A stretch of DNA of 64,000 bases from sequence record NC_054906.1. One strand, written 5' to 3'. The translations under genes were made by a program, and so were the position numbers. The DNA comes from Enterobacteria phage RB18. The notes under the pieces were generated by a model. The model had not been told where the DNA came from. It worked only from the letters and a program-made list of their open reading frames with translations, and made no database searches. How positions within the stretch are numbered: the stretch's first letter is position 1; each line of letters opens with the position of its first letter. Of the stretch, positions 956 to 63,989 are shown piece by piece.

Positions 956-981
956 TCTCTAACGATAGAAACACAATTTTA

Positions 982-1005
982 GGGAACCTTCGGGTTCCCT
1001 TTTTC
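982..1005 (+). terminator. Intrinsic terminator after gene 23
   Basis: gggaacc-TTCG-ggttccc stem-loop followed by T-run. Confidence 0.7.
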
Positions 1006-4642: not shown

Positions 4643-4658
4643 AGGGGCCGAAGCCCCT
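4643..4658 (-). terminator. Terminator hairpin after hoc
   Basis: ggggc-CGAA-gcccc with T-rich tract on minus strand. Confidence 0.6.
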
Positions 4659-6533: not shown

Positions 6534-8045
6534 ATGACTGACATTAAAGTACATTTTTATGATTTTAGTCACGTGAGAATTGATTGTGAAGAAAGTACAT
6601 TTCATGAACTCCGTGATTTCTTTAGCTTTGAAGCTGATGGGTATCGTTTTAATCCGAAATACAAATATGGCCACTGGGATGGACGAATCCGTCTTTTAGA
6701 TTATAATCGTCTTCTTCCATTCGGCTTAGTCGGGCAAATTAAAAAGTTCTGTGATAACTTTGGCTATAAAGCCTGGATTGACCCACAAATTAACGAAAAA
6801 GAAGAATTATCAAGAAAAGATTTTGATGAATGGCTTTCTAAATTAGAAATCTATTCAGGAAATAAAAGAATTGAACCACACTGGTATCAAAAAGATGCAG
6901 TGTTCGAAGGATTAGTTAATCGTCGTAGAATTCTTAATCTTCCAACATCCGCTGGTAAATCGTTAATTCAAGCTTTGCTTGCGCGATATTATTTGGAAAA
7001 TTATGAAGGTAAAATTCTTATCATTGTTCCAACAACTGCTTTAACAACTCAGATGGCTGATGACTTCGTTGACTATCGTTTATTCAGTCATGCAATGATA
7101 AAGAAAATTGGTGGCGGAGCATCAAAAGATGATAAATATAAAAATGATGCACCAGTTGTTGTTGGTACATGGCAAACTGTAGTAAAACAACCAAAAGAAT
7201 GGTTCTCACAGTTTGGAATGATGATGAATGATGAATGCCATCTTGCTACAGGAAAAAGTATTTCATCTATCATATCAGGTTTAAATAACTGCATGTTCAA
7301 ATTCGGTTTGTCTGGTTCATTACGTGATGGCAAAGCCAATATCATGCAGTATGTTGGAATGTTTGGTGAAATATTTAAGCCAGTAACGACTTCTAAATTA
7401 ATGGAAGATGGACAAGTAACTGAGCTAAAAATTAATAGTATTTTTCTTCGCTATCCCGATGAGTTCACTACTAAATTAAAGGGAAAAACTTATCAAGAAG
7501 AAATAAAAATTATTACTGGGCTTAGTAAAAGAAATAAATGGATCGCTAAATTAGCTATTAAGCTTGCGCAAAAAGATGAAAACGCTTTTGTCATGTTTAA
7601 ACATGTATCACATGGTAAAGCTATTTTCGATTTAATTAAAAATGAATACGATAAAGTTTATTACGTATCAGGGGAAGTTGATACCGAAACCCGCAATATA
7701 ATGAAAACCTTAGCTGAAAATGGTAAAGGAATAATTATAGTAGCTAGTTATGGTGTATTTTCTACTGGTATTTCAGTTAAAAATCTGCATCACGTTGTTT
7801 TAGCGCACGGTGTTAAATCAAAAATCATTGTATTACAAACAATCGGTCGTGTATTACGTAAGCATGGTTCTAAGACAATAGCAACCGTCTGGGACCTCAT
7901 AGATGATTGTGGCGTTAAGCCAAAATCTGCTAATACGAAAAAGAAATATGTTCATTTGAACTATCTTTTAAAACACGGCATTGATCGTATTCAGCGCTAC
8001 GCAGATGAAAAATTTAATTACGTAATGAAAACAGTTAATTTATAA
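6534..8045 (+). CDS. uvsW: UvsW RNA-DNA / DNA helicase (main 503-aa reading frame)
   Basis: SF2 helicase motifs (PTSAGKS Walker A, DECH box); T4 uvsW position. Confidence 0.85.
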   Translation: MTDIKVHFYDFSHVRIDCEESTFHELRDFFSFEADGYRFNPKYKYGHWDGRIRLLDYNRLLPFGLVGQIKKFCDNFGYKAWIDPQINEKEELSRKDFDEWLSKLEIYSGNKRIEPHWYQKDAVFEGLVNRRRILNLPTSAGKSLIQALLARYYLENYEGKILIIVPTTALTTQMADDFVDYRLFSHAMIKKIGGGASKDDKYKNDAPVVVGTWQTVVKQPKEWFSQFGMMMNDECHLATGKSISSIISGLNNCMFKFGLSGSLRDGKANIMQYVGMFGEIFKPVTTSKLMEDGQVTELKINSIFLRYPDEFTTKLKGKTYQEEIKIITGLSKRNKWIAKLAIKLAQKDENAFVMFKHVSHGKAIFDLIKNEYDKVYYVSGEVDTETRNIMKTLAENGKGIIIVASYGVFSTGISVKNLHHVVLAHGVKSKIIVLQTIGRVLRKHGSKTIATVWDLIDDCGVKPKSANTKKKYVHLNYLLKHGIDRIQRYADEKFNYVMKTVNL

Positions 8046-8070
8046 GGGCTTCGGCCCTTTGGAGAAAAAG

Positions 8071-17049: not shown

Positions 17050-19106
17050 TACATTTTGAACTTTTTAGACATTCCGTTGATGTTAACCAAAGAAGCTAAG
17101 ATTTGAGAAACTTCGTTTTCCTCTTCTTTTGATTCTTCTACAAGGAATTGATTAAATCCAGCCATTGGACGAACTTCTCCGGTTTCCATTAGATAGTCAC
17201 CATCATATACTGATTCTTCTAATTGTTCAGAAGGAGGAACGATTGTACCTTCGATTAGATACTTGTTATAAGCAGTTTCTTTCATAAAGTAAGTACTTAC
17301 TTTATTAATCTTCAGTAAAATTCCACGCGGTAGAATAACTTCAGCTTCTGATGGAAATCCTGTTAAATGACCTGGAACGATAACTTTGATTCGCTCAGCT
17401 CCTTTAATTACCATACCCACGCTAGTTTCAGCATCTTCATTAGCATATGTAGAATGACTACCCATATGCATCAAATCTTCTGCATCAACAGAACCTTCTC
17501 CTTCACCAGAAAATACTGCGCCGGAATCATCTAGAGCCATATAGTTTTTACCATGCTCACCGAAGATATTTGGTTTAAGTGATGTCGATACGAAGTTCTT
17601 GAAATAGAACATTTTGTTTTCAATGTTATGACGCAAAGTTTTAAAGGTAACTTCTTGTCCACGATAAAGCGTAGTTCCTGGAGGAAGAACTGAACCTTTA
17701 GCGAATGCAGAATCCAACGTCTCGATGTGCTTAATAGCTCGTTCCATATATTCTTCACGGGTAGAATCTGGTTTACCCAAAAGGAACGAGTTCATTTCAA
17801 CATATGAATCTGCACAATAATCTTCAATTACATCAGATTCAGCTTGAGTTAATCCTTTTGGAGTTACTTCGGTGCTTGCGTATTCATATGCCTGAGCAGC
17901 AGATTCATTAATCAATTTATAAATGCCATTCATGACAAATTGAATAATAGCTGTCTTTTCATCTGGCGTAGCTTTAGAACCTTTAACCAAATCATTGATA
18001 ATTTTCTTAATAACATCAAAGCTATTAGAAATATTAATATCAGCAAGATCGCTTAAAATTTTATCAGTTTTATAATCAAAGAATTCTTTATTCTTTAAAT
18101 ATTCTTGAGAACCTTGATATGTTATATCGCTCTGCAACTTGATGGATGGATCACGTAAACGTGCATGGGCTAATGCAATATGATTTCGGAAGTTTTCTAG
18201 TTCATAATCGCTAGATTTAAAACGAGAAGCACTCCTCATACCACCGATAGCTCCTTTGTTGAAGTTTGAACCAATCTGAATAACGCCAGAGTTCATTGGT
18301 CCTTCTGCTTTATATACCGGAACTTTGGATTCAAACTCTTGATATTTCTTAGCAGCGAAGCTATCACCCTGAAGTGAAGCATCAACAGTAGAATATTGAG
18401 CTTGTGCTGCTAATCGACGACTAATTTTAGTTTTCTGAATAACAGCTTGGTCAGTGCGCTTATCATTTTCTAAAGCAATAGAAGCAGCAACTGCGACAGC
18501 TTTAGGAACAGCATTACCTGTTTTAACGTCTACATAAACATCACCAACCTTTGATTCAACTTTTGTGAATAACTCAGCTGAAATAGGAGGTACACCTGGA
18601 ATGTCTTCTAAATTGGCATTTTTACGGTAAACCATAATATATGCATATTTCTTATCATAGTCCCAGATTTCCTTTAAAAGAACATATCGGCCTGCTCCTT
18701 TAGTACGTACTAAACGGTCAGCAATAACTTGCATTTGACGAGCAGCGCCATTTGTTTTACTCTTTAGTACGCGGAATAAGCATGCATCAATTTTATACTG
18801 TTTCATTGTTTGAAGAGCAGTATCAAAAACAGCATTAATGACGCCAATTGGATTTCCACCCAAGTTTTTAAGCTTAACTAATGATAGTTTCTCATTAACA
18901 CCTATCATTACGATATGCATCATTTTGTCGCCTGGCTTAACGTTTTTATTCGTATCACCGCCAGAGGTGTATGTACAAAATCTAAATCCGGGGAGAACGC
19001 TTTCTTCACCGGCTTGAATAGCAAAAATTTGTGGTATTTTATGCTTAGGATTTAAGTTAACAACCGGCGCCGAAGCGCCGTCAAATAATTCTGTAATAAG
19101 TTCCAT
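17049..19106 (-). CDS. Alt-like mono-ADP-ribosyltransferase, second paralog (685 aa)
   Basis: N-terminal ~230 aa near-identical to neighbouring Alt; FVSTSL and EAEVILPRG ART motifs. Confidence 0.75.
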   Translation of the reverse strand: MELITELFDGASAPVVNLNPKHKIPQIFAIQAGEESVLPGFRFCTYTSGGDTNKNVKPGDKMMHIVMIGVNEKLSLVKLKNLGGNPIGVINAVFDTALQTMKQYKIDACLFRVLKSKTNGAARQMQVIADRLVRTKGAGRYVLLKEIWDYDKKYAYIMVYRKNANLEDIPGVPPISAELFTKVESKVGDVYVDVKTGNAVPKAVAVAASIALENDKRTDQAVIQKTKISRRLAAQAQYSTVDASLQGDSFAAKKYQEFESKVPVYKAEGPMNSGVIQIGSNFNKGAIGGMRSASRFKSSDYELENFRNHIALAHARLRDPSIKLQSDITYQGSQEYLKNKEFFDYKTDKILSDLADINISNSFDVIKKIINDLVKGSKATPDEKTAIIQFVMNGIYKLINESAAQAYEYASTEVTPKGLTQAESDVIEDYCADSYVEMNSFLLGKPDSTREEYMERAIKHIETLDSAFAKGSVLPPGTTLYRGQEVTFKTLRHNIENKMFYFKNFVSTSLKPNIFGEHGKNYMALDDSGAVFSGEGEGSVDAEDLMHMGSHSTYANEDAETSVGMVIKGAERIKVIVPGHLTGFPSEAEVILPRGILLKINKVSTYFMKETAYNKYLIEGTIVPPSEQLEESVYDGDYLMETGEVRPMAGFNQFLVEESKEEENEVSQILASLVNINGMSKKFKM

Positions 19107-21234: not shown

Positions 21235-21238
21235 AAAT

Positions 21239-21258
21239 TAAAGGCCCGAAGGCCTTTA
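21239..21258 (-). terminator. Terminator hairpin downstream of the ligase operon
   Basis: aaaggcc-CGAA-ggccttt. Confidence 0.6.
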
Positions 21259-21444
21259 ATAATCTAGTGGTAAGAGAGTACGGTATATTTCAAACTTTGG
21301 ACCTTTTTCATAGGCATCAAATGTTTCTGTGAATTTATTATAAGCATATGCATCTACAAATTCGAGAATGACTTGTGATACAGAAGTAGAAACATCTCCA
21401 CCTTCTTTTTGAGCAATGACAATTGTTTCTAAGTAAGCTTTCAT
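21256..21444 (-). CDS. Hypothetical protein (62 aa)
   Basis: ORF with ATGA overlap to ligase stop. Confidence 0.4.
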   Translation of the reverse strand: MKAYLETIVIAQKEGGDVSTSVSQVILEFVDAYAYNKFTETFDAYEKGPKFEIYRTLLPLDY

Positions 21445-24854: not shown

Positions 24855-25177
24855 TAGAACCTCATCTGAAAACCGTGCGATTTAACATTACCACCGCCAA
24901 TATCAGAAATGTTAATTTCACTCGCAATTGAAGGGTCAATGTCAATTTCACGATTAAGTTTAGTGATAGCTAAAGTATCGCGCCCATTTACAGTACGGAA
25001 CTCTAAAGGGCAGACTACATTAACGTAGTTTTTAATCGATTCACTGGTAGGCTGCAAATGAGCAGGAAGGTCTTTGGGCGCCTTTGAGAAAACAACTTCA
25101 CAGAAATTTTTGCGGGTGTCAAAATAAGTAGTCATAAACATAATATTTTCCTCAGTAAGGGGCCGAAGCCCCCTCAT
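24854..25177 (-). CDS. Hypothetical protein (up to 107 aa; start may be internal Met)
   Basis: ORF; N-terminal codons overlap a GC hairpin, so a later start is likely. Confidence 0.4.
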   Translation of the reverse strand: MRGLRPLTEENIMFMTTYFDTRKNFCEVVFSKAPKDLPAHLQPTSESIKNYVNVVCPLEFRTVNGRDTLAITKLNREIDIDPSIASEINISDIGGGNVKSHGFQMRF

Positions 25178-26005: not shown

Positions 26006-26034
26006 AACTTTATGCAATCTTTGGAAAATAAAAA

Positions 26035-26052
26035 AGGACTCCCGAAGGAGTC
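26035..26052 (-). terminator. Intrinsic terminator
   Basis: ggactcc-CGAA-ggagtcc followed by T-run on minus strand. Confidence 0.65.
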
Positions 26053-26058
26053 CTCAAC

Positions 26059-26358: not shown

Positions 26359-26607
26359 TTACTTCAGTGTTACCACAAAGTGACGAACTGCTTTTCGTGC
26401 AGCAGAAGCCAAAGGCTTAGCATATTTAAGTTCATCTTTTTCCTGAAGCTCAGCAGCTAATGCAGTTTGAGCAGGATTCAGATGTTTGAAATAACGCAGG
26501 ATTTCAAGAGCTTCGGCTTCAACATCAATAGATGCGCCATAGTTTTCGTGACCATTATTCCATGCGTTTCGTTGCAGTTCAAGAGCGTGTTGTAATTGTT
26601 TAATCAT
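26359..26607 (-). CDS. rIII: rIII lysis inhibition accessory protein
   Basis: 82 aa ORF immediately downstream of gene 31, as T4 rIII. Confidence 0.6.
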   Translation of the reverse strand: MIKQLQHALELQRNAWNNGHENYGASIDVEAEALEILRYFKHLNPAQTALAAELQEKDELKYAKPLASAARKAVRHFVVTLK

Positions 26608-29363: not shown

Positions 29364-30756
<1,393 letters not shown>

Positions 30757-32191: not shown

Positions 32192-33779
<1,588 letters not shown>

Positions 33780-49915: not shown

Positions 49916-49920
49916 ATTGA

Positions 49921-49943
49921 GGGAGCCTTCGGGTTCCCTTTTT
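49921..49943 (+). terminator. Terminator hairpin after gene 35
   Basis: gggagcc-TTCG-ggttccc followed by T-run. Confidence 0.6.
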
Positions 49944-54437: not shown

Positions 54438-54439
54438 AA

Positions 54440-54462
54440 GAGGGCTTCGGCCCTCTAAGGAT
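54440..54462 (+). terminator. Hairpin between genes 37 and 38
   Basis: agagggc-TTCG-gccctct followed by T-rich tract. Confidence 0.5.
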
Positions 54463-58951: not shown

Positions 58952-60276
58952 TTGATTTCCTCTAAATCTTTGGTGTATTCTGTAACTACATCGGTAGTTT
59001 TCCAATATTCGTTTTCTTCTTTTTTGGCTTTAGCTTCTTCAGCAAGTTTCTTTGCTTCATCTGAAGTCATATGAAAAATATTCATTCCAACTAGTTTATC
59101 AACATAAGAAGAATACATCTCAATTTTAGAAAGTTCTTCGGTCAGTTCTTTACGAGTTTTACCCTGCACAACAATTTCACCTGAAATTACTTTCTTAATG
59201 AAATGTGCCTTGGCAAAAGCTAAACGAAAAGCTGACTCAGTTTCTTTAATTTTATTATCAATTCGTTTTTGGACATAAGTTTTACGAACTTCAACAAAGT
59301 CTTTAATTAAATCGACTACGTTATCGTAAACTTGTAGTTTTCCTTTCTCATTAATAACCGTAATATTCTGAGAACGACGCTCAATCAACCCGAAGTCTTT
59401 CATAATTTTTGCATGACGTTCTTCTTCATTATCGCTCAAAGAATATTCTTTGCGGAATTTAACTTTGAATCCAAAACCATGCTCACCACAAGCATCATCC
59501 CATGTAATGAAGCCTTTATCTTCAAGTGGGTCTAAGATTTTACTCACATAAGTTTCACGATCATACTTATACGGAATCTCAGTGATATGCATTTGAGTTC
59601 GTGAAGTAAACTTATATGTTCCACGAATTTCATATTGCCCATCAATTTCAACGACTTCACCACGAAATTCTGGGAATTCTACCTTCGGTTTAGTTACTTT
59701 CTTTCCTTGAAGAGCTTGTAGTACAGCTTTCTTGACAGAAGAAACACTATGAGGAAGAATGTAAGTTGCATAACCAGTTGCAATACCGGAAACGCCATTA
59801 AGAAGAACAGTAGGAATAATAGGCAAATAGAAAGCAGGCGGAATGTGTTCTTTATCTTGATGTACCGGAGCATATTCAGTATCTTTATATACGTTATAGA
59901 AATTTTTACTTACACGAGCAAAAATATAACGACTTGCCGCTGCCTTTTGGACAGTACGAGAACCAAAGTTTCCTTGACCATCTAATAGAGGAAAGTTATT
60001 ATTCCAAGTATTAGCCATCAAAGCACCTGCGTCTTGCGCAGAGTTTTCGCCATGATGATATCCAAGGTCCGCTACACCACCTGCGATAGAAGCGAGTTTG
60101 TGAAACTTATCTTTATTTCCTCGTGCCAAATCAAGAGCTCGAGCAATAACAAATCGTTGAACTGGCTTAAATCCATCAATCATATTTGGGATAGCACGAT
60201 TTTCAACCGTGTACATAGCATAAGCCAATGCTTCATTATCAATGATACTTTTTAAATCGCGATTATTCAGTTGCAT
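58948..60276 (-). CDS. 52: DNA topoisomerase II medium subunit gp52
   Basis: 442 aa; GyrA-like DNA breakage-reunion domain; T4 gp52 length. Confidence 0.85.
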   Translation of the reverse strand: MQLNNRDLKSIIDNEALAYAMYTVENRAIPNMIDGFKPVQRFVIARALDLARGNKDKFHKLASIAGGVADLGYHHGENSAQDAGALMANTWNNNFPLLDGQGNFGSRTVQKAAASRYIFARVSKNFYNVYKDTEYAPVHQDKEHIPPAFYLPIIPTVLLNGVSGIATGYATYILPHSVSSVKKAVLQALQGKKVTKPKVEFPEFRGEVVEIDGQYEIRGTYKFTSRTQMHITEIPYKYDRETYVSKILDPLEDKGFITWDDACGEHGFGFKVKFRKEYSLSDNEEERHAKIMKDFGLIERRSQNITVINEKGKLQVYDNVVDLIKDFVEVRKTYVQKRIDNKIKETESAFRLAFAKAHFIKKVISGEIVVQGKTRKELTEELSKIEMYSSYVDKLVGMNIFHMTSDEAKKLAEEAKAKKEENEYWKTTDVVTEYTKDLEEIK

Positions 60277-60280
60277 AAAT

Positions 60281-60421
60281 TTACCATACTAGTGAATGTA
60301 GTGCCATAATAACATCAGAAATGAAAAGCACGACTTGAATTAATCCGAACATTACTCCATAATATAGTGCTACTAATAAAGTAGCAAGGGCTAATGAATA
60401 GCCCAAGATTTTCTTAATCAT
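60281..60421 (-). CDS. Small hydrophobic protein (46 aa)
   Basis: Hand-translated MIKKILGYSLALATLLVALYYGVMFGLIQVVLFISDVIMALHSLVW. Confidence 0.3.
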   Translation of the reverse strand: MIKKILGYSLALATLLVALYYGVMFGLIQVVLFISDVIMALHSLVW

Positions 60422-60572
60422 TAGTAGATAACAACACAAATGTTAAATATGCACACATACCCTGAGCTAAAGCTTGCGAAAACACACTGCTGGCATCAAT
60501 ACAGATAGTTAAAACACATGCTACTATCCAACAAATAAATGAAATAACTCCTAATAATTTTACAATATTCAT
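60414..60572 (-). CDS. Small hydrophobic protein (52 aa), possible ac-like
   Basis: Hand-translated MNIVKLLGVISFICWIVACVLTICIDASSVFSQALAQGMCAYLTFVLLSTND. Confidence 0.3.
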   Translation of the reverse strand: MNIVKLLGVISFICWIVACVLTICIDASSVFSQALAQGMCAYLTFVLLSTND

Positions 60573-60579
60573 ATTTTCC

Positions 60580-60660
60580 TCACTGGCGTCCGAAGACGCC
60601 TTTAGTTTTAAGATTATTACGATAGAACTGCATCACGTGTTCGTTGTGGAAATTACTCAT
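60580..60660 (-). CDS. stp: Stp peptide (suppressor of three-prime phosphatase), 26 aa
   Basis: Hand-translated [26 protein letters not shown], matching remembered T4 Stp; below track size cutoff. Confidence 0.7.
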
Positions 60661-61118
60661 TAATATGCCTGCAAAACGAATTTAAAGTTATCAGCCAACA
60701 TACGGTTCATTTCTTCAAGTGTTTGATACTCGGAATGATGATTACGGGTAAACGCCAAAGCTAACTGACCTTTACCAAATCCTGTCGTCAGAGGTTTCAT
60801 CTTAGAAGCAGGCAGATAAAATACTGTGTATACCATATTGTTATTTGCAATAGTACGTGCAAGCTGAGACCGACGTTGACGAATATGACTTAGAACTGCA
60901 CTGAATCCTTGCTTAGAACGCTGATTACCTACATAAAATCGTGCTGACACACATGGATTACTAAATGGACGACCATCTAATTTACTTACTAAAAAGTAAA
61001 ATCCAGGTTTAGATAAAATATCTTTATGCGGAGTTCCCAAAAACCACTCACCACCCTTGATTGTACCAATAACAGTAGCGCCTGCGTTGTTCAGATCAGT
61101 AACAGTCATGTATTTCAT
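60660..61118 (-). CDS. ndd: Nucleoid disruption protein Ndd
   Basis: 152 aa, position immediately upstream of stp as in T4. Confidence 0.6.
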
Positions 61119-61176
61119 ATTAATTTCCTCTAAATTATTTTCTACTCCATGGCCGCGTATTCATGCGGCCATTAAA

Positions 61177-61392
61177 TTAATCGTCGCAGTCGACGCTCAA
61201 TTCCCAAAACTCTTCTACGGTATAAGTTTCAGTATCATTTTCAATACAGAAACGTTCATTACTGTTATTTGCTAAAGTAGCATTAACTGTCGGTTTCTCG
61301 CTAGTGCTCTTAAGAGGTGAAATACGAATTAACTGATCACCGTTATCTAAACAGAAAATTTCACCAACTTTTACATCTTTAAAGCTTTTCAT
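61177..61392 (-). CDS. Hypothetical protein (71 aa)
   Basis: ORF. Confidence 0.4.
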   Translation of the reverse strand: MKSFKDVKVGEIFCLDNGDQLIRISPLKSTSEKPTVNATLANNSNERFCIENDTETYTVEEFWELSVDCDD

Positions 61393-61507
61393 AATTCACC
61401 TCAAGGAGTATAAAATCCGAATGCAGTTGTTGACCATCCCATCCAATACGGGAAATTTGCACCAATGTAAAACATAAGAATATAAAACCAACCGCTCAAC
61501 AAATTCA

Positions 61508-61726
61508 TCATTTTACACCATTCCAAATTGTTTCAACTACGGATTTTAAACCATTTTGATGAATATCCATTCCGACTACTGCCATCAAATATATTCCAAC
61601 TACCACTGAACCTAGCGCAAAAATCAGCATGAAAATGAATAAAGCCGGAAAAATATTATCGAAAAACCATTCAATAAATGTAAAAGCACTGCGTTTACGC
61701 TTCATATTTTCCTCACATAAATCCAA
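61508..61726 (-). CDS. Small membrane protein (72 aa)
   Basis: Two hydrophobic segments. Confidence 0.4.
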   Translation of the reverse strand: MDLCEENMKRKRSAFTFIEWFFDNIFPALFIFMLIFALGSVVVGIYLMAVVGMDIHQNGLKSVVETIWNGVK

Positions 61727-61826
61727 AGTAAACGTTTAATACATCAATCATTAAAACGATTGGGAATATACTCAAAACTACTAGTATTATAACTACATTC
61801 CATATAGCTTTAACAATCTTTTTCAT
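61713..61826 (-). CDS. Small membrane protein (37 aa)
   Basis: MKKIVKAIWNVVIILVVLSIFPIVLMIDVLNVYFGFM with SD GGAGGAA; upstream part of track ORF overlaps a promoter. Confidence 0.3.
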   Translation of the reverse strand: MKKIVKAIWNVVIILVVLSIFPIVLMIDVLNVYFGFM

Positions 61827-62737: not shown

Positions 62738-62803
62738 TTAAACTTTCCTTTATGTCGGAATCACTGATATTCATATAATAAATCATAATTTCTCTTAAAA
62801 CAA

Positions 62804-62819
62804 AAGGGCCGAAGCCCTT
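62804..62819 (-). terminator. Terminator hairpin
   Basis: aagggc-CGAA-gccctt followed by T-rich tract on minus strand. Confidence 0.55.
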
Positions 62820-62823
62820 TATT

Positions 62824-63018: not shown

Positions 63019-63050
63019 AATTTTCCTTAATGTGATAAGGGCCGAAGCCC

Positions 63051-63989
63051 TTATTTAAATTGTTCAGTAACGTCTTCAACTACTTCATATTGGCAGGTAC
63101 GCATTTTAGCATCGTTGTAATCAATCGGAATTGATACTACATCACGCGGATGTACTTTAACTTTTACAACTCGACTGGTTGAACTGCCAAAGTGACGAAT
63201 ATAAGATTTAGAACACACATGCAGACCACGAGAACAAGTTTGTGTATCATCGTCATTCACACGAGTACGTGGCATTTTAACTACTTTACCCGGACTGTTA
63301 TCAAAGGTGTTTGAGTGACAGTCAAAGTAGTTGTCACGAACTACTTTCCAAGCATAGAAGTAACCATCTTCTGTAATTTCAATATCGTTTGCTACCAAGA
63401 AATCAAAAAGTCGAGATACCGCTTTTTGGCTTGGGTTTTCCAGCAGATTTTCCAAGAACGGAAAATAAAATTCAAAGTTTTCGCCTTTTTCCATCGAATC
63501 AAGAATACGATCAACTAAACCAGACCGCAATTCAATATTTTGATAGAACAAGCTTCCACCTTCAATTCGAACATCGCCGGAAATATATTTTTCAACAGCG
63601 CGACGAACATTAATTTTTTGTGCAGCTTCTTCCAGCTTATCCGCTACGAGCAGATTAAGAATTTCCTGGAAGTTTGAATGAGTATTAGGTGTTGCATTAT
63701 AAGTTACACCATCAACAGTAATCGAAATGAATTTTTTAGATGCATTCCAAATAATGTCAGATTTAGCAACTGGAGCAATAACTTCATCGCTATTAACTTT
63801 AACTGTAATATCACCGCTAATAGTAACTTTAGGGCGTTTAGCTTCTTCAGCATTTTTCAAAACACGACGGATTGTGTCAACCGATACATCCTTCCAATAA
63901 GCTAATTCCTGCTGAGTGTAATTACCGCTTGAATACAGTTTAACAATTTCAGCTTGTTCGTTTTTGGTCAGGCATTTAATATTGTACAT
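63051..63989 (-). CDS. rIIB: rIIB membrane-associated protein
   Basis: 312 aa, length and position as T4 rIIB. Confidence 0.8.
   Translation of the reverse strand: MYNIKCLTKNEQAEIVKLYSSGNYTQQELAYWKDVSVDTIRRVLKNAEEAKRPKVTISGDITVKVNSDEVIAPVAKSDIIWNASKKFISITVDGVTYNATPNTHSNFQEILNLLVADKLEEAAQKINVRRAVEKYISGDVRIEGGSLFYQNIELRSGLVDRILDSMEKGENFEFYFPFLENLLENPSQKAVSRLFDFLVANDIEITEDGYFYAWKVVRDNYFDCHSNTFDNSPGKVVKMPRTRVNDDDTQTCSRGLHVCSKSYIRHFGSSTSRVVKVKVHPRDVVSIPIDYNDAKMRTCQYEVVEDVTEQFK

Follow-up and report, generated by a model that had tools for sequence, protein, structure and literature searches.

Stp is a delayed-early anti-restriction peptide known from the work of the Kaufmann laboratory (reviewed in PMC3014915). 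It was demonstrated that the N-terminal 18 residues of Stp act on the host type IC complex EcoprrI, blocking DNA restriction, and that EcoR124I is also inhibited, whereas type IA enzymes are not (PMC3014915). The anticodon nuclease PrrC is held latent by EcoprrI, and Stp unmasks it in prr+ hosts; PrrC then cuts tRNA-Lys 5′ of the wobble base, and the cleaved tRNA is healed by Pnk and sealed by Rnl1 (PMC3014915). Loss-of-function suppressor mutations of Stp cluster at residues 4-14, and the loss of the eight C-terminal codons reduced both activities only moderately (PMC3014915). The inhibitory mechanism of Stp was still described as unknown in a 2025 review (PMC12707154). The T4 mRNA is also where UUCG tetraloop hairpins, termed "extraordinarily stable", were first described (Tuerk et al. 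1988, recounted in PMC4371310).

Here, a small open reading frame (ORF) in a stretch of 64,000 nucleotides, hereafter the window, was compared with these systems. This ORF is almost certainly the stp gene of a T4-like phage, an identification that is correct but ordinary, the gene being already well known. What is added to it is evidence for an independently selected hairpin at the 3′ end of stp, together with a set of largely unannotated Stp homologues in siphophages. The coordinates of all features are collected in Table 1.

The stp gene and its tRNA-repair partners

The sequence-only reading had singled out a small minus-strand ORF and matched its 26-residue peptide to T4 Stp. The translation agrees exactly with the peptide quoted there, and its alignment with T4 Stp (NP_049878) gave 26/26 identical residues and thus no mismatch to the authentic sequence; given identity over the full 26, the N-terminal 18 residues, including positions 4-14, are all as in T4. 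The Pfam family PF08133 (Anticodon nuclease activator family) was matched with a score of 75.3 bits (cut-off, 25), with protein residues 1-26 aligned to profile positions 1-26 of 26, and NCBIfam holds no model for Stp, Ndd or Ac. At the DNA level, stp carries two synonymous third-position differences from T4 and none from RB14, and a 100% identical peptide was found by tblastn in at least 421 phage records. Over 1.4 kb around stp, the nucleotide identity is 99.1% with Escherichia phage RB14 and 95-99% with hundreds of Tequatrovirus records; over a 24-kb stretch that includes the partner genes, it is about 96-97% with many T4-like phages. Additionally, the genes are arranged 52 / 52.1 / ac / stp / ndd / ndd.1, as in RB14 and T4, so that stp has the place between ndd and ac that it takes in T-even phages, within their early leftward transcription unit. 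Therefore, from its T4-like gene order and nucleotide identity, the window is a Tequatrovirus (T4-like) genome segment.

The ORF had also been called unannotated, which holds for the 60-aa ORF cut-off used by that reader but not for the databases, in which the equivalent ORF of RB14 (NC_012638) and T4 (NC_000866) is annotated as stp, "activator of host PrrC lysyl-tRNA endonuclease". In other T4-like GenBank records stp is often not called; in at least two of them (OL964745.1 (T4) and OP870145.1) it stands under the label "naphthalene 1,2-dioxygenase", an obvious automated mis-annotation, and in KAW1E185 only a "terminator" is annotated at the stp site. Thus, ORF-length cut-offs and many automated annotations drop or mislabel this gene. 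Both of its junctions are tight. The stp ATG overlaps the ndd TAA stop by one base (TAATG), an overlap that suggests translational coupling of stp to ndd, and the stp TGA stop overlaps the GAGG Shine-Dalgarno sequence of ac (60578-60581; TGAGG), the junction reading TGAGGAAAATATG.

Both enzymes of the tRNA-repair pathway are encoded in the window. The pseT ORF matched the T4 Pnk structure 1ltq (E 1.8e-201, query 2-302 aligned to chain 1-301), with an N-terminal P-loop 5′-kinase domain at residues 6-149 (PF13671, AAA_33) and a C-terminal HAD 3′-phosphatase domain at 160-302 (PF25109, HAD_PNKP). It opens with an adjacent ATG pair (ATGATG, 30456-30461, minus strand) that overlaps the stop of an upstream 100-aa ORF; the second of the pair, at 30458, is the start in the T4 reference and in the numbering of the crystal structure. 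The placement of a T4-type Pnk at 29553-30461 by the sequence-only reading is thus upheld as to identity, while its start is probably one codon too long. The rnlA gene, given there at 32192-33316, is indeed that of Rnl1: it matched PDB entries 2c5u, 5tt6 and 9do4 (E about 1e-253) and the NCBIfam equivalog TIGR02308 (633 bits against a cut-off of 242), and it contains the nucleotidyltransferase domain PF09511 (RNA_lig_T4_1) as well as the Rnl1-specific C-terminal domain PF20819 (T4_Rnl1_C).

Because the two peptides are identical, the mechanism established for T4 carries over to the window peptide, which would be expected to inhibit type IC restriction (EcoprrI, EcoR124I) and to activate latent PrrC. 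In a prr+ host, Stp would block EcoprrI, so that latent PrrC would be unmasked; PrrC would then cleave tRNA-Lys, the ends would be healed by Pnk, and the break would be sealed by Rnl1. The earlier account, in which Stp releases PrrC and the phage answers with Pnk and Rnl1, follows the textbook version (PMC3014915) and is in agreement with the two repair genes of the window, except that Stp acts via inhibition of EcoprrI and not on PrrC directly. No tRNA genes were detected in the window by ARAGORN, and therefore no phage tRNA-Lys bypass is present there. In this T4-like phage, stp, the short and readily overlooked gene of the classic Stp / PrrC / Pnk / Rnl1 system, is thus present and intact.

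Table 1. Positions of stp, its neighbours, its repair partners and the C(UUCG)G hairpins in the window, followed by stp-related loci in other genomes (L numbers)
Feature	Position	Strand	Remarks
stp CDS	60580..60660	-	26 codons + TGA stop, ATG start
ndd (nucleoid disruption protein), 152 aa	60660..61118	-	immediately upstream of stp; PF06591 Phage_T4_Ndd, 314 bits
ac (acridine resistance), 52 aa	60414..60572	-	immediately downstream of stp; position and size as RB14 and T4 ac
pseT (Pnk), bifunctional polynucleotide 5′-kinase/3′-phosphatase	29553..30458	-	healing enzyme of tRNA repair; start at 30458 probable
rnlA (RNA ligase 1, Rnl1), 374 aa	32192..33316	-	sealing enzyme of tRNA repair
C(UUCG)G tetraloop hairpin in stp, 6-bp GC-rich stem, C:G closing pair	60585..60600	-	minus-sense GGCGUC-UUCG-GACGCC; + strand GGCGTCCGAAGACGCC
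Stemmed C(UUCG)G hairpin	981-1000	+	
Stemmed C(UUCG)G hairpin	4643-4658	-	
Stemmed C(UUCG)G hairpin	8044-8059	+	
Stemmed C(UUCG)G hairpin	19065-19080	-	
Stemmed C(UUCG)G hairpin	21237-21260	-	
Stemmed C(UUCG)G hairpin	25157-25174	-	near-twin of stp context; then ACUGAGGAAAAU
Stemmed C(UUCG)G hairpin	26034-26055	-	
Stemmed C(UUCG)G hairpin	26508-26519	+	
Stemmed C(UUCG)G hairpin	49919-49940	+	
Stemmed C(UUCG)G hairpin	54439-54456	+	
Stemmed C(UUCG)G hairpin	62803-62820	-	
Stemmed C(UUCG)G hairpin	63035-63054	-	
Unannotated T1-like / YX3973 stp	L004 1501-1581 (OL960579.1 45164-45244); L005 1201-1281; L006 1201-1281		
Henu7 stp	L042 19270-19350 (NC_054894.1)		
Further T1-like stp loci	L010-L015, L020, L022-L024, L027, L032, L034, L036		
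Kagunavirus stp	L037 4001-4078 (NC_048181.1 43056-43133); L038 3001-3078		L037, Raoultella phage RP180; L038, phage hz69
Further Kagunavirus (Guernseyvirinae) stp loci	L021, L025, L026, L029		
177-aa gene annotated "polynucleotide kinase"	L042 19827-20360 (Henu7 gp30)		equivalents in L005, L010-L013, L015, L020, L022, L024, L027, L032, L034, L036

The C(UUCG)G hairpin in the last stp codons

A stem-loop had been reported inside the stp coding sequence, and it is present there as a hairpin that spans codons 21-25 and the first base of codon 26 and ends 3 nt ahead of the ac Shine-Dalgarno sequence. It was found in both the MFE and the centroid folds of the local RNA; the fold of the whole region is not unusually stable (z = -0.59), and only the local hairpin stands out. 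No Rfam family was matched over 59800-61800 at E ≤ 1. When all 3,072 synonymous encodings of KGVFGRQ plus the stop codon were enumerated and weighted by codon usage, none was more stable than the observed one, which shares the top rank at -11.5 kcal/mol (usage-weighted mean, -1.7), and the usage-weighted probability of reaching this stability was P = 4.9e-4. The stem is built on minority codons (GGC 16%, GTC 8%, CGC 14%) in a genome of 36% GC. Since the observed encoding ties for the most stable and relies on such codons, the hairpin is not a mere consequence of the amino-acid sequence.

The comparison of stp copies points in the same direction. Among T4-like phages, synonymous changes are found in codons 1-18 but not in codons 19-25, and one Gaprivervirus keeps the stem, with UUUG in the loop, although five residues of its Stp are different. 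In the siphophage genus Kagunavirus, on the other hand, the same G-V-F-G residues are written GGR GTK TTT GGR and no hairpin is formed; because these residues are kept there without it, the tail must also be constrained as protein. Two Tequatroviruses, fHoEco02 (L039 701-787) and SHFML-26 (L041 701-787), encode a 28-aa Stp that shares the 18-residue head but ends in another tail (..NLKNFGILGSKNS); the GC hairpin is absent there, and the stp 3′ end has been replaced in a cassette-like manner. The copies of fHoEco02, SHFML-26 and Kagunavirus all do without the hairpin, which is therefore not essential to the expression of stp or ac.

The stp hairpin also belongs to a larger set in the window. 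The hexamer CTTCGG occurs 35 times, against 13.7 ± 3.4 expected (2.5-fold over-represented), and 13 of the 35 copies lie in stems of at least 4 bp, whereas none of the copies of the composition-matched hexamers CTCTGG, CCTTGG and CTTTGG do. Most of the 13 stemmed hairpins are intergenic and start 2-30 nt past a stop codon. About half of the twelve further hairpins are followed by T-runs and look terminator-like, while the others lie directly 5′ of a Shine-Dalgarno sequence. This over-represented, stemmed set fits the historical discovery of such hairpins in T4 mRNA (PMC4371310).

These findings suggest that, under RNA-level selection, the last six stp codons may serve as a C(UUCG)G hairpin as well, one of a family that would punctuate the transcripts of this genome. 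A simpler reading takes the hairpin as a by-product of the residues G-V-F-G-R-Q, with no function at the RNA level; its location inside a coding sequence, the conservation of G-V-F-G as protein in Kagunavirus and the two Tequatroviruses that lack it would all fit. However, a by-product accounts poorly for minority codons that reach the highest stability attainable, for the Kagunavirus genes that write the same residues without a hairpin, for the absence of synonymous change at codons 19-25 while codons 1-18 vary, and for the excess of CTTCGG and its stems over the matched hexamers, and it is thus considered unlikely.

An intrinsic terminator is a further possibility, acting either on the plus strand, where it would keep antisense or late transcripts from running into the early ndd-stp-ac-52 unit, or partially on the stp-sense transcript. 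On the plus strand the stem is followed by TTTAGTTTTA, and a consensus scan flagged the site; in one GenBank record, a "putative transcriptional terminator" is placed at this site on the stp strand, and T-runs follow six other UUCG hairpins in the window. Nevertheless, the T-rich tail on the plus strand is the complement of the Lys/Thr codons AAA ACT AAA, no plus-strand gene lies nearby, and it is on the minus (stp-sense) RNA that the exceptionally stable C(UUCG)G is read, the plus-strand loop being CGAA. What follows the stem on the stp strand is AGUGAGGAAAAU, the ribosome-binding site of ac, in which there is no U-tract. A terminator in either form is accordingly regarded as improbable, and a Rho-independent terminator on the sense strand was rejected for want of a U-tract after the hairpin. 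A literature search for T4 transcript-end mapping found none. The RNA-level reading that fits best is that the hairpin is most likely a barrier at the stp/ac junction that affects mRNA stability or processing, and not a sense-strand terminator; such a punctuation element would be overlaid on the least important part of Stp.

Translational bypass was considered as well. In gene 60, bypass involves a GGA take-off codon, a stop codon and a tetraloop stem. A mechanism of this style was rejected for stp, where the stop comes after the hairpin and not at its base and the 26-aa product is the known full-length peptide.

Stp homologues outside the T4-like phages

The tblastn search with Stp also matched genomes of about 45-52 kb. 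Among them, the Tunavirus SA30RD holds an unannotated 26-codon stp-like ORF whose GTG start overlaps the stop of the upstream gene, and the Klebsiella phages Samwise and YX3973, of which YX3973 is unclassified, encode 26-aa versions. A degenerate-DNA scan of IMG/VR for a 10-residue Stp core gave 30 loci, most of them on contigs of 43-53 kb. The predicted peptides fall into three subtypes, a T4 type, a Kagunavirus type and a T1-like type. In the first, Stp ends in ..KTKGVFGR(Q) and every copy has the hairpin. The Kagunavirus type has 25 residues and no hairpin, is unannotated, and is encoded by the first ORF after the lysis genes. The T1-like type, of Drexlerviridae, consists of a 14-residue head followed by [QH]RIKK[IM]LNSTNC, with a start that often overlaps the upstream stop; it was found by tblastn in 185 GenBank phage records, and the name "anticodon nuclease activator family protein" was attached to it in 1 of 45 sampled rows. 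The Henu7 representative scores 36.1 bits against PF08133, above the threshold, and its match covers profile positions 1-18. A literature search on the phrase "anticodon nuclease activator" found no papers.

The Stp of the Kagunavirus copies is 24/25 identical to that of T4, and 9-10 of their codons differ synonymously from the window. Over codons 1-18, the window and the copies of RP180 and hz69 differ at six codons synonymously and at none non-synonymously, and T4-like copies differ at 2-4 codons, all synonymously. By this measure, Stp is under strong purifying selection as a peptide, and the synonymous-only pattern, which a 26-codon frame would not give by chance, therefore marks a real coding sequence. 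That the spacer between ndd and ac stays open over these 81 nt by chance alone, with only the RNA hairpin functional and the peptide irrelevant, is scarcely conceivable: the ORF is very short, has no NCBIfam model, goes uncalled in many T4-like GenBank records and ends in a hairpin of a kind that in this genome is normally intergenic, just past stop codons, but the selection pattern, synonymous only over codons 1-18 across Straboviridae and Guernseyvirinae, refutes it, and the 26/26 identity to the genetically and biochemically defined T4 Stp (PMC3014915) and the same-length homologues of T1-like phages, with unrelated flanks and no hairpin, stand against it too. Additionally, the Kagunavirus copies point to a gene that has spread horizontally while under strong purifying selection.

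A 177-aa gene annotated as "polynucleotide kinase" was seen in 14 T1-like loci, where it lies 0.5-1.5 kb downstream of stp. Its product corresponds to the HAD 3′-phosphatase domain of Pnk only (PF25109, 75.8 bits; 26% identity to residues 153-300 of the window Pnk), and no kinase domain was found in it. Rnl1 was found neither in any fetched stp flank nor in the Henu7 annotation.

What look like natural stp variants were also observed. In L028 (6458-6535) and L033, which are T4-size IMG/VR contigs, and in L031 (7677-7754), the stp ATG is replaced (CGG or TCA) and no in-frame start is present; these are probably null alleles. Loss of stp is the classical route of T4 escape from PrrC. In L019 (226-450), a frameshift has brought Stp into one frame with the downstream ORF, and the fused product has 74 aa.

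Comparison with the known systems

Taken together, a broader picture can be drawn, which we hold only tentatively and to which we give somewhat less than even credence: the 3′ third of stp would be dual-coding, carrying a selected RNA element, and the Stp shared by Straboviridae, Drexlerviridae and Guernseyvirinae would be a mobile anti-restriction head, about 18 residues long, whose tail varies with the lineage, linked in T1-like phages to a stand-alone 3′-phosphatase of the Pnk type. If true, conflicts with type IC restriction and with PrrC-like guards would extend well beyond T4. The Stp head, found in hundreds of T1-like and Kagunavirus genomes, offers natural variants for studying how a 26-mer inhibits a type IC enzyme, and these siphophage side observations could help work on anti-restriction peptides and guard-type defences.

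With respect to T4 itself, the stp gene of the window has the same sequence, length, ndd-stp-ac position, stop/start overlap with ndd and 3′ hairpin, and two synonymous nucleotide substitutions are the sole difference. The tRNA-Lys repair pathway follows the same three-gene logic, with both enzymes present and near-identical to the crystallised T4 proteins, although the host prrC and EcoprrI hsd genes lie outside a phage window. The hairpin shares with those of T4 mRNA the UUCG loop, the C:G closing pair and a GC-rich 6-bp stem; however, most other C(UUCG)G copies are intergenic, whereas that of stp lies within a confirmed coding sequence, of which it occupies the last six codons. The siphophage peptides (Drexlerviridae Henu7, Samwise and SA30RD; Kagunavirus RP180 and hz69) resemble T4 Stp in their length of 25-26 aa and in their core, xSxWHNEH[VI]MQ[FW]YR in Drexlerviridae and YX3973, which covers residues 4-14, where the T4 suppressor mutations cluster, as does the 14-residue core of Kagunavirus. 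On the other hand, they differ from T4 Stp in the C-terminal tail (..RIKKILNSTNC) or in their codons, lack the UUCG hairpin and have other neighbours.
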